Below are positions 44,590-49,985 of a stretch of 64,000 nt of DNA, piece by piece. Numbering within the stretch: the first letter of the stretch is position 1; the number at the start of each line of letters is the position of its first letter. The stretch lies in NCBI GenBank assembly GCA_963765495.1, contig CAVXWP010000016.1, positions 192,001-256,000 of the forward strand, given 5' to 3'. The position numbers and the translations under genes were made by a program. The notes under the pieces are model-generated. The model was given only the letters and a program-made list of their open reading frames with translations, did not search any database and had not been told where the DNA came from. This stretch comes from Blastocatellia bacterium. Lineage in GTDB: Bacteria; Acidobacteriota; Blastocatellia; UBA7656.

Positions 44590-44712
44590 TTCGAATTGCG
44601 CTATGAAGTCCAGGAAGGGCTCAACGTCGTTGAACGTTGGAATGGCGCTAACGAGTTCATCTGTTATGGACGACAAGGCGTCTTCGCCACCAATAGCCGC
44701 GCGCAACAGGAG
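44590..44712 (+). mobile_element. Tn3-family transposase fragment
   Basis: ELRYEVQEGLNVVERWNGANEFICYGRQG..TN...QE resembles the Tn3 DDE C-terminal motif. Confidence 0.7.
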
Positions 44713-45392
44713 ATGGCGAGGAAACTGGTTCGGCTGCTGCGGCCAGTGCACCCGGACTATTCTTACTTGAAGAAAGTCTTTCAGCACACCCGCGAACTGC
44801 TCCAAGTACGGCCCGGCAAAGTGGAGAAGCGCTTACCGGAGTTGCTGACGGATGAGGAACTATTGGCGTTTTACGAAGCGGTCTGGAACGCTCGCCAGCC
44901 CGTCCATATGGTGATGATCAAGTTGCTGATCTTCACCGGAGTCAGAAACGCCGAACTCGCTAGTGTGCGCCTGAAAGATGTGGACCTCAACAACTGTCAA
45001 CTGCGGATCGAGCAAGGCAAGGGGAAGAAGGATCGTAACGTGCTGTTTCCGAAAAGCTTTCGTGGCGAGTTGGCGCAATATCTGGGCAGCCAGAAAGAGA
45101 AAAGGCGACTCATCTGTTCGAGTCGAATCGCTTCCAGCCGTACTCGACGCGCCGCATTCGGCAGATCGTCAAGCAGTATGCGCTTGAAGCCGGCATTGAG
45201 AAGCGCGTCTATCCACACTTGTTCCGGCACCAAATCATCACCTATCTGAGCAAACGAGGAATCATCAGTCCGAAACTGCAACTGCTAAGTGGGCATGTAG
45301 AAGAAAAAAGTCTGGCGATCTATCGCGATCTAGCCTTGTCAGATGTGGCGGGTGAATATGAAGAGGCGATGCGGACGTTTCCGGTCCGGTAA
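44713..45392 (+). pseudogene. Tyrosine recombinase with frameshift near 45100
   Basis: GVRNAE, GKGKKDR; shifted frame continues YPHLFRH..LSGH..IYRD to TAA 45392. Confidence 0.85.
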
Positions 45393-45576: not shown

Positions 45577-47184
45577 AAGTAGGCCTTTTCAGGCTACTAC
45601 TTACCTGAAAAGCTGTCAAATCGGCTCGATAATTTCGCACTCCAGGCATTCTGCGAAATGATTTCTTTTGGTCTCCTTCCTTTCTCTGATGGTGAGGAAG
45701 CCGCATTCTAATGTCTCAACGGAAGTTTTCGACCAGCATTAGGCTGCCGTTGTGAGATCCCTCCGCTTGGGTAAAGAGGATGGAGCGACGATCGGGCGAA
45801 ACCGCAAAACTGTTAGAGAGGTTTTCTTCCTTCATCCCGGCGATCTTCGTAAGCTTGCTAGTCCGGTGTGTGGCAAAATTGAAGAAGCAAATACCAATGT
45901 CATTCTTCGCCCATGGGCAAAGGAAATAAATACCATCGCTCACTACGGCCCAATAGCGCGACATTCCCAGTGAATTGCAGGACTCACAAACCAGGGTTTC
46001 CTCGCCGCCCTCTATTGGTACACGCCAAAAGCCATTGAAGCGCTCCTTAGTGTAATAGACAAACCTGCCATCAGTTGACTCGAAAGCCGCCAATCCACCG
46101 TGCCTGGTTAGCTGCACGGCCCCGCCTCCCTGGGCTGGCATTTTCCACAGCTGATAATCTCCACTGCGCCTGGAAGCGAAGTAAATCCACTGCCCATCTC
46201 TGGACCAGCTCGGAATATTGTCATCGGCAGCATCGGTAGTGAGGCGGCGCGGTGGGCCACCTTCGGCGCTGGCCACGTAAATGTTCCAGTCACCATTTGC
46301 TTGACAGTCGAAAGCGATCTGCCGTCCATCGGGAGACCAGTGTGGGCTTCCTGCCCACTCGCTCAGGAAGGTGAATTGAGCCGGGTTTGAACCATCGCTA
46401 TTGCATGTCCATATCTCCGAGAACCCGGAGCGATCGCTCGCGAAGGCGACTCTTTGGCCATCAGAAGAGAATTGAGGGTCACGCTCGCCTTCCGTCGATG
46501 AGACGAAACCTACCGGTAGACTAGGCTGGCCTGTTGAAGCTGGTAGCTCAAGGCGGTAGATGCTTAACTTACCACCCCATTGGGTGTAGGCCAGGCGATG
46601 CCCTCTACTAGAAACGGCTACGGAAAACGCTCTGTCTCCGCCCACTGCAAGACGCTCGGGAGTGCCACCGACAATGGGAATTCTCCACAAGGCGCTATGG
46701 GAGATCGGGCTGGCGAGACGACTCGACGAGAAGATGATTTCACGGCCATCCGGAGTCCAGGCCGCTCTATCGATGTGCGCATTATCGAAGGTCAGCCGTT
46801 TGGGCTGGCCGCCCGTTATGGGCACCAGATAGAGATCTCCCAATCCTGTAGTGTCGACAGTTGTGTGGCGCACAAAGGCCAGCGTCTGACTATCTGGAGA
46901 GAAGACTGGAGAGGAATCTCCTGCAGACTGCGCGGGCGGAGATGTCAGAGTGCGCCTTTCTCCCGTCTCCAGCGAAAACAAGAGAATGCCGGCAGGGTCC
47001 TCCTGTGAGACTCGGTGCGAGGACGCGATGAACTTGCCATCAAGAGACCAGTCGAGTGTAGGCCACAAGTGCCAATTAACAGGACCTGCTCTGAAAATAA
47101 AAGGGGTGCTAAATGTTGATAACGAGTAGATGAAGACAAACAACTCCGAGCCTGTGCGATATTACTTCTGCACAGCTTCATCAA

Positions 47185-47329
47185 ACTGGTTGTCGGTAGG
47201 GCATTGGTTAATAAGCATGAGTCTGCTCTACGTGCTCAAAGGCAACAATTCGGGGTACCAGAAATATGCCCAGGTCAAACTGCTATACAGGCTCGAAGCA
47301 CCAAGGACCGTTCGACCTTCATACCGACA
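47185..47329 (-). ncRNA. Bridge RNA 2 (predicted; ends approximate)
   Basis: Scaffold shared with 48676-48820, compensatory stems, right guides complementary to CTGCTAT and CTGCTCT. Confidence 0.75.
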
Positions 47330-47335
47330 TACAAA

Positions 47336-47364
47336 ATTCTATCATGGCTCTCACACATTTTCAT
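47336..47364 (-). promoter_or_regulatory. Sigma70-like promoter for bridge RNA 2
   Basis: ATGAAA-N17-TAGAAT with extended TG; same geometry at 48828-48856. Confidence 0.55.
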
Positions 47365-47424
47365 CATTCGAAGGTGAGCCGCAGGCTCATGATGAACTGC
47401 TATGAAAATAAGAGTAGGTGTTGA

Positions 47425-48663
47425 TCAGGCAGCTTGCTCGACCTCTTCAACAGTTACTCTCAAGCCCGTCCCCTCAAGCTGTCGGATTAATCTTCGCCGC
47501 TGCTTCTCTACATTCCTTTTGTCCAGATAATCTACTCCCAACTCTTTGTAACCGGCTCTCTCTTCTAAGACGTGATATACAATCACAAGTATCGAATGTG
47601 CTATTGCTACCAGCGCCTTCTTCTTCCCCATTCTCTTGACCAGCCTTTTGTACTTCGCTGCAAGGAAACAATCCTTCTGATGCGTTGCTGCCCAGGCTGC
47701 CTGCACAAGGGCTGCTTTTAGATAGCTATTGCCCTTTTGGGTTCTTCCACTCTTTCGTTTTCCTGCCGATTGATTATTACTGGGACAGATCGAAGCCCAA
47801 CTTGAGAGATTCTTGTCTGTTGGGAAGCAGCTCATATCTACTCCAATCTCAGAGACAATGATCTGGGCTAAGGTCTTTGCGACTCCTGGAATAGAATCGA
47901 GAAGCTCAACAGCTTGCTTAACAAAAGGGTCTGGGGAAGTTTCGACCTCCTGGCTGATCTTCTCTTCAACCCTCTTAATAGAGGATTCAACCGAGTCATA
48001 CTGATCGAGGAGTTCTTTAAGAATCCAGCGTTGGGCAGAAGTGAGGCGACCGTGCAAAGCACGCTTCAAGTCAGCCTTCTTACGCTTCATCCTCCGACGA
48101 GCAAGGTCGCTGATCTTGTCAGCATCGGTTTGACCATCAGCCAAAGCTCTCAGCATCAGCCTGCCGCTAACCCCCAAAGCATCACTAGCGACTTGAGCGA
48201 GCTTGATATTGGCGCTTTCAATCAACTTCTGAATGCGATTGGCAAGAGCAGTCTGCTCACGGATAAGGCTCTGGCGGTAGCGAGTCAAATCCCTGAGTTC
48301 ACGGATATGAGGAGGAGGGATAAAGCTGGGACGAAGCAGACCGTGACGAAGCAGGTCAGCAAGCCACTCACAATCCTTAACATCAGTCTTTCTGCCAGGA
48401 ACAGCTTTGACGTGGCGGGCATTAACCAAAATAACCTCCAGGGAGGATTCGAGGATATTGAAAACAGGCTTCCAGTAAACGCCAGTACTTTCAATAGCGA
48501 CGTGAGTGCAGCCTTGAGAAGTGAGCCAGTCGAGCAGGGCAAGCAAATCATCAGTCATGGTTGAGAAAGTGCGAACCTCTTTGTTGCCGTCAGTGATGAG
48601 GCAGGCGACAACGGTGCGAGCGTGAACATCAATACCACAGCAAGAGTTGTAAAGAATCTGCAT
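47425..48663 (-). CDS. IS110-family DEDD transposase/recombinase
   Basis: GIDVH, IESTGVYW, KTDVKD, SIPGV, QSAGK catalytic Ser; AAGGAG precedes ATG 48663. Confidence 0.96.
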   Translation of the reverse strand: MQILYNSCCGIDVHARTVVACLITDGNKEVRTFSTMTDDLLALLDWLTSQGCTHVAIESTGVYWKPVFNILESSLEVILVNARHVKAVPGRKTDVKDCEWLADLLRHGLLRPSFIPPPHIRELRDLTRYRQSLIREQTALANRIQKLIESANIKLAQVASDALGVSGRLMLRALADGQTDADKISDLARRRMKRKKADLKRALHGRLTSAQRWILKELLDQYDSVESSIKRVEEKISQEVETSPDPFVKQAVELLDSIPGVAKTLAQIIVSEIGVDMSCFPTDKNLSSWASICPSNNQSAGKRKSGRTQKGNSYLKAALVQAAWAATHQKDCFLAAKYKRLVKRMGKKKALVAIAHSILVIVYHVLEERAGYKELGVDYLDKRNVEKQRRRLIRQLEGTGLRVTVEEVEQAA

Positions 48664-48675
48664 GATAGAACTCCT

Positions 48676-48820
48676 TTCGGCATTGGCGGGGAGCCTCAAA
48701 ACAAAAGAGACTGCTATGCGTGCTCGAAGCAACAAGTTGTGATGCCTGAAAAGGCTCCCCAAGTCAAACTAACGACCGGGCTAAAGGCACCAAGGCCCGA
48801 CGACCTATCAGCCAATGACC
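48676..48820 (-). ncRNA. Bridge RNA 1 (predicted; ends approximate)
   Basis: GTCGGGCCT-TGG..GGTCGTTAG target loop and ..CATAGCAG donor loop match the element junctions. Confidence 0.8.
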
Positions 48821-48827
48821 AGAAGGA

Positions 48828-48856
48828 AGGATACATAAACTCTCAGACATTTTCAT
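48828..48856 (-). promoter_or_regulatory. Sigma70-like promoter for bridge RNA 1/transposase
   Basis: ATGAAA-N17-TATCCT. Confidence 0.45.
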
Positions 48857-49814
48857 CCGTCGTGAAGAAGCCTTGCTTCATGGATGCCTAACGAGAGTAA
48901 TTTGCGCTCAGTGCCGCCGGTTGCGGGCACGGTGAAGATGGTCCACTCTTTTTCCCAATTGCGCACAAAAGCGATTTGCTGACCATCGGGTGACCAAGTT
49001 GGATATAGGTCTAACCCTGGGAAGGTGGTAAGTCGCAATGCTCTTTCCCCACCGATTGATTTGACGTAGATGTCCCAGTTGTCGTTCTTCTCGCCGAACC
49101 AACGAAAGGCTATCTGGTTACCATCCGGCGAGAAAGCAGCGGCGTCATGGTCACCGATCTCGGTCGTGAAGGGTAGAACCTTCATCGGCGGCAGCGGGGG
49201 GACGAAATTATGCCGGGAAAAGTAGAGCCCTACTATGCTGCTGATGGCTAACAGCAACCCTATAGGCCATATGAAGGTCTTCGCCCGCCACCAAGGACGA
49301 CGGTACGAGGTTGAAGGCGCCTCGTTAGCAACGACTACGGCTTGTGGTGGGATCAATACCGTGTGTGGTAAGACGCCCTCTTCCGTTTCAGCAGTTGTCT
49401 CCTCTTCAATAATGACGCTTGCTCTGGTGAGTCTTTGCAATAACACCTCAGTCACTTCCTCCGTAAGCTCTCTCACGCTAGCCACAAATCGGTAGCCTCG
49501 CTTGGGAACCGTTTCAATGTATTGCGCAGTGTTCTTACTCTCACCCAAAGCCTTCCTCAGCGTCGAGATATTGTTGGCCAGATTGTGCTCTTCGACAAAG
49601 CTATCCGGCCATAGAGTCTTCAGCAGTTCCTCCTTTTCAACCAAGTGGCCGCGGCGCTCGACAAGCACCACGAGGGTTTCAAAGGCCCTCGGAGTCAGCG
49701 CCACAGGCCCGCCATCGCGCAAGAGCAGGTGTTCTGCGACGTCTAAGCGAAAAGGGCCGAATTCATATAAACACTTTGATTGATTTCTCATACCGCCTCT
49801 CCGAAGGTCTGGAG

Positions 49815-49858
49815 AATTTTTGGACACTTTTTGGATAACTTTCTGAAGACTTCCAAAC
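49815..49858. promoter_or_regulatory. ~11-bp period direct repeats upstream of the wHTH gene
   Basis: aatttttggac actttttggat a actttctgaag acttcc. Confidence 0.5.
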
Positions 49859-49985
49859 TGCCTTTCGATTACTGTCGTCCGCGAGGTGAACAATGACAGG
49901 AAGTGATGTTCAGTTCAGTAATCCTTGTGCTACCCGCATTGTACTGCAAAGCGGAGCGTGGGGCAAAACATTCGGAGGTGGGGTG

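Follow-up and report, generated by a model that had tools for sequence, protein, structure and literature searches.

The window analysed here, a 64,000-nucleotide stretch of Blastocatellia bacterium (assembly GCA_963765495.1, contig CAVXWP010000016.1, positions 192,001 to 256,000 of the forward strand), contains two head-to-tail units of the IS110 family of insertion sequences (IS) at 47086-48889, with a CT dinucleotide at each boundary. Unit 1 (47397-48889) is an intact IS whose bridge RNA, RNA1, lies upstream of a DEDD transposase. Unit 2 (47086-47398, 311 bp) has no transposase gene and carries a complete bridge RNA homologue, RNA2. The reading that we favour, at a probability of about 0.55, is that unit 2 is a transposase-less miniature inverted-repeat transposable element (MITE) of IS110 type which has a bridge RNA of its own and homes, by the mechanism proposed below, to the RD tips of resident elements (RD, the transposase-distal 'right end' in the RNA sense). 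It is built on the sequences and their guide matches, the distribution of copies, an empty site and the conservation of the RNA part. The boundaries of the two units are as follows.

47086..47087, no strand: CT core at the junction of host gene and unit 2 (from the sequence; the empty-site contig joins 47084 to 48887)
47397..47398, no strand: CT core common to units 2 and 1 (from the sequence)
48888..48889, no strand: CT core at the junction of unit 1 and host gene (from the sequence and the empty-site contig)

Both units have the same start, CTGCTnTGAAAATAA, and the pair splits a host gene with Trans_reg_C and PD40 domains. Deletion of 47088-48889 (1802 bp) regains a single open host frame of 798 aa. 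In run X3, a soil metagenome of a different study, one contig connects 47084 with 48887 and leaves out 1802 bases; it is an empty site in a relative. The unit boundaries are therefore real. An earlier, sequence-only reading of the window had given these units and CT cores together with four pairs of matching motifs, all of which were confirmed: CTAACGA at 48769 and 48888, CTGCTATG at 48711 and 47397, CTGCTCT at 47223 and 47086, and CTGCTAT at 47280 and 47397. Its observation thus stands, and its interpretation is partly supported. The features of unit 2 are listed below.

47088..47102, plus strand: RD tip of unit 2, GCTCTGAAAATAAAA (identical in 5/6 copies; matches the RNA2 donor guide at 47223)
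47152..47175, minus strand: hairpin CTGTGC-N12-GCACAG downstream of RNA2, a possible terminator (stem kept, loop different in the homologue from G024, a genome of another genus)
47192..47328, minus strand: RNA2, bridge RNA homologue of ~137 nt with outer stem GUCGGUA/UACCGAC (alignment and folds)
47223..47229, minus strand: putative RNA2 right donor guide, CTGCTCT on the plus strand (equal to unit 2's own RD tip, 47086-47092)
47278..47286, minus strand: putative RNA2 right target guide CTGCTAT (47280-86) with handshake UU (47278-79) (equal to the unit 1 RD tip, 47397-47403)
47304..47312, minus strand: putative RNA2 left target guide, RNA AACGGUCCU (placed by homology in the subfamily alignment; partial match to observed left flanks)
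47336..47364, minus strand: promoter-like site for RNA2, ATGAAA and TAGAAT separated by 17 nt, with TG before the latter (sequence scan)
47380..47396, plus strand: LD tip of unit 2 (the left end in the RNA sense), ending in GGCTCATGATGAA (comparison of copies)

Unit 2 aligns with the leader of unit 1 over its whole length and then passes directly into an IS-like end. As the sequence-only reading had supposed, it is non-autonomous: six copies with 99-100% identity are present in the genome and no open reading frame (ORF) is conserved. The sole long ORF (91 aa) was rejected as a gene, being interrupted by stops in a homologue. RNA2 aligns over its full length with RNA1, with RNA-B of a third lineage in this genome (IS-B) and with 31 relatives, and the folds of unit 2 and of the G024 homologue consist of an outer stem and two stem-loops. 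RNAalifold on a MAFFT alignment recovered only the invariant target-loop stems, and a crude stem search gave control values too close to the observed ones to be informative. An Rfam scan of 46500-49500 matched no family, the only hit being a chance lncRNA match below threshold, and a consensus terminator scan did not call the hairpin at 47152-47175. The promoter spacing is identical in the G024 homologue, which has TATAGT. The donor guide of RNA2 matches its own tip at 7/7 positions, and the difference between the donor guides of RNA2 (CTGCTCT) and RNA1 (CTGCTAT) mirrors that of the two tips exactly. Its handshake UU equals the TT with which the left end of unit 2 starts (LD end AA-CT). On these grounds RNA2 resembles a functional bridge RNA belonging to unit 2.

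The target loop of RNA2 is of special interest. Its right guide is identical to the RD tip of unit 1, as the sequence-only reading had stated; it agrees at 5/5 variable bases with the tips of unit 1 and of a mini-element, M1, and at 4/5 with those of unit 2 and of a second mini-element, M2. Over the six genomic sites the agreement is 5/5 at three, 4/5 at two and 0/5 at one. The left guide retains the G-G-n-C-CU character of RNA1 and is only a partial match to the attC-type left flank G[A/G]GC-CT. The likeness noted earlier between both left guides and the host left flank, GGnCCT, is present; however, it rests on about 2-4 informative bases, because CCT (CCU in the RNA) is invariant throughout the subfamily. 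Taken together, the left and right guides are what one would expect of a loop aimed at a 'left flank-CT-resident tip' junction.

The corresponding features of unit 1 are these.

47399..47413, plus strand: RD tip of unit 1, GCTATGAAAATAAGA (identical in 5 copies)
47425..48663, minus strand: transposase, 412 aa (Pfam DEDD_Tnp_IS110, PF01548, at 1e-34, and Transposase_20, PF02371, at 8e-21)
48681..48817, minus strand: RNA1, bridge RNA of unit 1 (alignment with relatives)
48711..48718, minus strand: putative RNA1 right donor guide, plus strand CTGCTATG (equal to unit 1's own RD tip at 47397)
48769..48777, minus strand: putative RNA1 right target guide, plus strand CTAACGACC (matches right flanks)
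48793..48801, minus strand: putative RNA1 left target guide, RNA GUCGGGCCU (positions 4-7 fit left flanks G[A/G]GC-CT, G-T wobble allowed)

The leader of unit 1 (~220 nt, 48666-48889, minus strand) lies upstream of tnp, which encodes the transposase, on the same strand, and four intact identical copies of the transposase exist in the genome. Terminal inverted repeats are absent at the tips; CT stands at both junctions, so that the core in the transposase sense is AG. The right target guide of RNA1, CTAACGA(CC) at 48769, recurs as the flank CT-AACGA at 48888. The same right flank is found at 4/5 unit-1 sites, the fifth being CT-AACAA with one mismatch. Unit 1 fits the IS621 scheme for the right target guide and the right donor guide. 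When the left donor guide was compared with the LD tip, CAGGCAUC of RNA1 turned out to be complementary to the top strand and not to the bottom strand. The handshake UU of RNA1 (48767-48768) does not agree with unit 1's own left-end start GC (48886-48887), an exception to the handshake rule described below. It would fit the TT end of unit 2, a hint that insertion of unit 2 into attC sites could be guided by RNA1.

The guide rules were examined across the subfamily. Among the 61 stretches that a pattern scan of 185,579 species genomes yielded, about 45 are bridge RNAs of the subfamily, and these come from many phyla. At the homologous position, the 7-mer of the right target guide matches the left-end flank with 0 mismatches in 25/41 elements and with at most one mismatch in 36/41; this count needed enough upstream sequence, leaves out 3 chance matches and includes some copies of one IS. 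The chance that a given 5-nt guide matches a given flank is ~0.001, and agreement at the predicted guide positions exceeds chance. A blind column-by-offset scan of 29 elements found that the dinucleotide behind the guide's AG agrees with the start of the left end, its two positions doing so in 86% and 93% of cases. This handshake rule is obeyed by RNA-B (CC/CC) and by the G024 homologue (UU/TT).

The genome carries 14 bridge-RNA genes: six for RNA2, five for RNA1 (one copy of unit 1 being interrupted) and three for RNA-B, IS-B having 68% nucleotide and 69% protein identity to unit 1. Five of the six unit-2 copies sit directly on the RD tip, CT-GCT[A/C]T, of an IS110-type element, the resident being unit 1 twice, a mini-element of ~95 bp twice and unit 2 itself once. 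Read in the orientation of the window, two copies are followed by CT-GCTATG..., the unit 1 tip (C16, the window, and C9:38962). One is followed by M1, itself at CT-AACGACGAATTC, an attC site, with IS-B stacked to the left of that unit 2. Two stand in tandem and are followed by M2 (tip GCTCT), itself at CT-AACGCC. The solo copy (C2:561273) lies in an integron attC site, GCGAGGGC-CT...CT-AACGAGGAG; it may be a remnant after loss of its resident, or may have been inserted via the RNA1 target loop. In every stack the resident adjoins a canonical CT-AACG site and unit 2 lies on the resident's RD side. Stacking affects six of the genome's 15 RD tips; the stacked element is unit 2 in five cases, IS-B in one and unit 1 in none. 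Among elements with the GCTAT guide 6/9 are stacked vs. 0/5 copies of unit 1 (Fisher 0.028, the copies not being independent).

Several further observations concern these copies. M1 (C9:30160-30254) and M2 (C9:46136-46220) have RD and LD tips of IS110 type and a shared core, CTAAGTTnTTGA, with no gene and no bridge RNA; the tips of M1 are unit-1-like, and M2 has the tip GCTCT and an IS-B-like LD. The outermost tandem copy of unit 2 (C9:45514-45530, copy 5) has a mutated RD tip, CT-TGCTCGG instead of CT-GCTCTG, and is possibly an immobilised copy. In the second composite, the unit-1 copy (C9:39273-41861) contains ~1.1 kb of foreign T-rich DNA inserted after base 1140. A distant third IS110-family transposase (C9:43507-44721, a 419-aa frame with 38% and 27% identity over two matched stretches) lies ~0.8 kb from the tandem unit-2 pair, on the opposite strand. 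All three lineages and most relatives carry, close to each end, ATGAAAAT boxes in inverted orientation, ~35 nt from the tip at the left end and ~5 nt from the tip at the right end (e.g., window 47402-47409 and 48848-48856); the left-end box coincides with the -35-like element of the internal promoter.

Homologues of unit 2 were sought with unit-2 DNA in the family and order, the order search adding 5 genomes; one full homologue (G024) and two fragments were found. The G024 homologue is 79% identical overall, with 90-93% identity in the loop region and 67-80% elsewhere, and its donor guide equals its own RD tip. It interrupts a protein gene, and its removal restores a 418-aa frame. Its left guide, AAUACUC-CU, stands against a left flank GCTACTT-CT, with the right flank CT-ACTAT. 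The covariation of its guides with its site supports use of the guides, not homing to IS. A variant from a sediment metagenome (X15) has 14 differences, of which 13 fall in 47109-47186, one at 47342 and none in 47187-47341 (P about 5e-4 for this clustering), and the RNA part of unit 2 is probably under constraint.

A scan of metagenomes with a pattern specific to unit 2 gave no match; a second pattern gave 7 stretches, 3 of them true bridge RNAs. In a Chloroflexia metagenome-assembled genome (L035) the left guide is shared with relatives that target TTCGCCAACAG, and the right guide, CATAGCAG, equals at 8/8 positions the tip of a ~110-bp mini-element inserted in that same TTCGCCAACAG target. 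Its own donor guide, CAGATGAG, is unlike the tip of the resident mini-element. A tblastn search of the 8-kb block found no transposase match, the 3' boundary of the element not having been located. L035 appears to be an independent case with the same signature as unit 2. L046 has a full IS inserted at a mini-element's tip, and in a metagenome contig (L086) an IS-B-like copy lies directly behind the tip and transposase C-terminus of another copy.

Apart from these, transposase-less bridge-RNA units of ~250 bp, with GTACCAG on both sides and an end that repeats the sequence of their target, were seen at L059:3490-3710 and L066:3190-3420. Another transposase-less unit (L107:1470-1700, identical to the start of L031) has a target guide equal to its donor guide, GTGAGGCAG; the unit has no defined right boundary in L031, where a PAS-GGDEF-HD gene comes after it. 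The units in L031, L059 and L066 belong to other phyla. In 6/33 elements across the family, the right target guide departs from the element's own donor guide by no more than one mismatch, vs. 41/1122 cross pairs (binomial 0.001, the lineages being partly related).

The mechanism that we propose for unit 2 would run as follows. RNA2 would be transcribed from the internal promoter and fold like the bridge RNAs of the subfamily, and a transposase supplied in trans by unit 1 or IS-B would take it up. The donor loop would recognise the ends of unit 2 itself, and the target loop would pair with GCTAT on the right and with a left flank that ends in ...C-CT. Here, unit 1 and its mini-derivative have GCTAT as their RD tip, whereas unit 2 and M2 have GCTCT, one base off. 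A circle of unit 2 would then insert between the host flank and the resident's RD tip, giving rise to stacks. Every insertion would also leave a near-target behind, given the resemblance of unit 2's own RD tip to the target. Expression of RNA2, mobilisation in trans and actual use of the guides are thus all presumed by the proposal. A role of RNA2 as an 'excision helper' was also considered and dropped, as its donor loop does not fit the junction of unit 1 and the right flank. Unit 2 might still act as a hyperparasite or as a brake on IS excision, as the sequence-only reading had suggested.

A number of findings weigh against this reading. The idea that unit 2 is programmed for IS110 ends is in keeping with the identity of guide and tip, but the autonomous IS-B carries the same AUAGCAG right target guide, and 2/3 IS-B copies lie at ordinary sites, CT-GTGGT and CT-GTTGC, where a fit needs G-T/U-G wobbles and one mismatch; the guide of RNA2 may simply be inherited. 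Nor do unit-2 copies always abut IS110 elements ending in CTGCTAT, as had been predicted: one is solo in an attC site, two are on GCTCT tips and the G024 homologue is inside a gene, at a non-IS site. The right flank of the solo copy, AACGA, has no similarity to the RNA2 guide. The matches of the RNA2 left guide to its sites are weak. For the left donor guide, the column-by-offset covariation scan and a comparison by eye gave only one covarying column, with left-end position 1, and no such guide could be assigned in RNA2. In addition, 41 G.CCTGCTAT sites in the genome are unoccupied, six of which, GTCCTGCTAT, fit RNA2 better than the occupied ones do. Because so many matching sites are empty, target-loop pairing alone cannot explain the preference for IS tips. 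Candidates for an extra factor are selection against other insertions, extra recognition of the tip, or the donor loop. Finally, both composites of unit 2 and unit 1 could be a single composite that moved whole.

The donor loop is also at the centre of the strongest rival explanation. In a 'half-match', a circle would recombine at the resident junction of left target (LT), CT core and RD tip (LT-CT-RD) through the donor loop, the target loop being uninvolved and its GCTAT guide inherited from an IS-B-like parent. Half-matches and reactions between two donor-binding loops (DBL-DBL) are reported for IS621 in the available text of bioRxiv 10.64898/2026.08.31.748434, and tandem units beside IS110 elements are ascribed to half-matches in that of bioRxiv 10.64898/2026.08.14.744561. 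The RD tips concerned differ by one base only; in two of the five stacks, where the resident tip is GCTCT, the donor guide is a closer fit than the target guide. The L086 tandem points the same way (donor guide 8/8 vs. target guide 6/8), as do the many empty sites that fit the target guide. However, the donor guide of unit 1 is perfect against GCTAT tips, and yet 0/5 unit-1 copies are stacked. The resident tip in L035 is matched 8/8 by the target guide and not by the donor guide, and the non-IS site of G024 fits the target loop better than the donor guide. We regard the half-match as unlikely for unit 2, if still a serious competitor.

Somewhat less probable again is that unit 2 is a passive hitch-hiker similar to MITEPpu9, a module found beside ISPpu9, either moved in composites with alternative ends or created in place, with RNA2 as a relic, a small RNA (sRNA) or a transposase decoy. 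For ISPpu9, circles of tnp alone, of tnp with ssr9 and of ssr9 alone are described, and MITEPpu9 lies downstream of tnp in 5/7 copies (both from the available text of PMC12288879). The present genome has two identical composites of unit 2 and unit 1, and no IS110 transposase match was obtained in G024 or G018 with the query used, so that the RNA can persist without a helper. Yet unit 2 is found next to M1, M2, another copy of itself and IS-B as well, and also on its own; its loop region is the most conserved part; and its donor guide and handshake bases follow its own ends and not those of unit 1. That the tandem is an artefact of assembling repeated IS sequences is most improbable: the metagenome-derived genome is repeat-rich and in 17 contigs, and the left loose end of a contig (X1, 1839 nt, depth 17.9) enters an IS-B end and not the window's host flank, but this contig spans the junction of unit 2 and unit 1 and reaches 48894, the identical junction recurs at a second locus with other flanks, and the 1802 bases skipped at the empty site are the sum of both units.

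Beyond the favoured reading of unit 2, a broader and more tentative proposal, which we hold to be somewhat doubtful, is that target loops of this widespread subfamily repeatedly evolve to read resident RD tips ('donor-tip mimicry') and that elements of the unit-2 type are true satellites which supply a guide RNA themselves, borrow only the recombinase and home to the junction that another IS110 has created. Under such mimicry an occupied site would remain or become a target, and a satellite would gain a harmless landing site beside its helper.

Outside the two units, the remaining features of the locus are parts of the interrupted host gene.

45716..47085, minus strand: C-terminal part of the host gene, PD40 beta-propeller repeats (domain matches; frame restored on deletion)
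48890..49893, minus strand: N-terminal part of the host gene, Trans_reg_C and PD40 (domain matches; frame restored on deletion)

About 1.7 kb from the composite, at window 44596-45392 (C16:236773-237326), there are split tyrosine-recombinase/integrase-like ORFs in two frames, with weak partial matches to an integron-integrase model.

Unit 1, M1 and M2 have as their canonical target the GCCTAAC box found in attC sites of integrons (GCCTAACG boxes). The genome has 167 GCCTAACG[AC] boxes, and in 5/5 boxes examined GTTAGGC lies 78 nt downstream. Arrays of these boxes stand beside three integron integrases whose scores exceed the cut-off of NCBIfam TIGR02249.

C6:263576-264514: integron integrase (TIGR02249)
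C17:4162-5100: integron integrase (TIGR02249)
C3:315777-316718: integron integrase (TIGR02249)

Large chromosomal cassette arrays are seen, for example, at C2:1-30000, C2:560000-605000, C6:265000-277000 and C3:318000-326000. The copy of unit 1 in the window is an off-array insertion in a gene. Its layout is not that of the IS1111 type, in which the guide RNA is downstream of tnp; because its RNA lies upstream of tnp, unit 1 is an attC-targeting IS of the IS110 group rather than of the IS1111 group. An IS110-group element of this kind shapes large chromosomal integron arrays.

Work is under way to turn bridge recombinases into programmable genome editors, and the study of their natural history continues. 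If the favoured reading of unit 2 is right, a guide and its enzyme can travel in nature as different mobile units, a target loop can be redirected to the junction of another element, and insertion can restore the target that it used. This would account for stacked and tandem IS110 loci without recourse to imperfect 'half-matches' alone. With its ~310 bp, unit 2 would offer a compact natural test-bed for the donor, target and handshake rules.

The sequence-only reading knew of no earlier description of such an arrangement. This proved too strong, since the same architecture is found in MITEPpu9/ssr9 beside ISPpu9 (PMC12288879) and tandem non-coding units have been reported (bioRxiv 10.64898/2026.08.14.744561). 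The literature search, which did not cover supplements, turned up no paper on a bridge-RNA-only element whose target loop matches the tip of an IS. ISPpu9 of Pseudomonas putida KT2440 is an IS110-group IS with the core AG in the transposase sense and CT on the opposite strand (PMC12288879). Like unit 2, MITEPpu9 is a short transposase-less module with IS-like ends that lies directly downstream of tnp and also occurs in solo and tandem copies. Its ends are near-copies of the IS ends (A'/B' boxes, 1-3 mismatches), and its sRNA is complementary to the antisense RNA of the 5' leader, hence leader-like; the authors regard it as a selfish hitch-hiker (PMC12288879). Unit 2 shares the traits of this type: no transposase, ends like those of a co-resident IS110, and copies downstream of tnp, solo and in tandem. 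Unlike MITEPpu9, it has a complete bridge RNA, a donor guide and handshake bases of its own, and a target guide equal to the resident tip, whereas in the available text of PMC12288879 no guide logic is proposed for Ssr9 and the term bridge RNA is not applied to it. Conversely, module-only circles have been demonstrated experimentally for MITEPpu9 (PMC12288879), and unit 2 is known from sequence alone.

In IS621 the pairing includes the CT core in each guide (PMC11208160), two 'handshake' bases follow each right guide (PMC11208158), and the bridge RNA works in trans (PMC11208160, PMC11208158). Unit 1 is similar in its CT core and in the handshake dinucleotide after its right guides. IS621 elements carry a transposase and target repetitive extragenic palindromic (REP) sequences, and the available texts contain no account of a natural element that has nothing but a bridge RNA and its ends (PMC11208160, PMC11208158). 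Hu et al. reported non-coding repeat units beside IS110 transposases (n=468) and tandem duplication of the whole module (n=437) (bioRxiv 10.64898/2026.08.14.744561). Recurrent insertion into occupied sites at IS110 loci is reported there and in bioRxiv 10.64898/2026.08.31.748434. As far as the available texts of these two papers go, one-sided donor matches explain the boundaries and insertion regenerates no target. The present locus, L046, L059/L066 and L031 differ in that the right target guide resembles the element's own RD tip. For this reason an occupied site would stay a target.

IS4321 and IS5075 belong to the IS1111 group and have terminal repeats of Tn21-family transposons as their targets; for elements of the IS1111-attC group the targets are integron attC sites. 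The system described here resembles them in that IS110-family elements home to the ends of mobile elements or to attC, unit 1 targeting the attC box GCCTAAC. IS4321/IS5075 and the IS1111-attC elements are autonomous and have the guide RNA downstream of tnp, whereas here the RNA is upstream and the putative homing element is non-autonomous.

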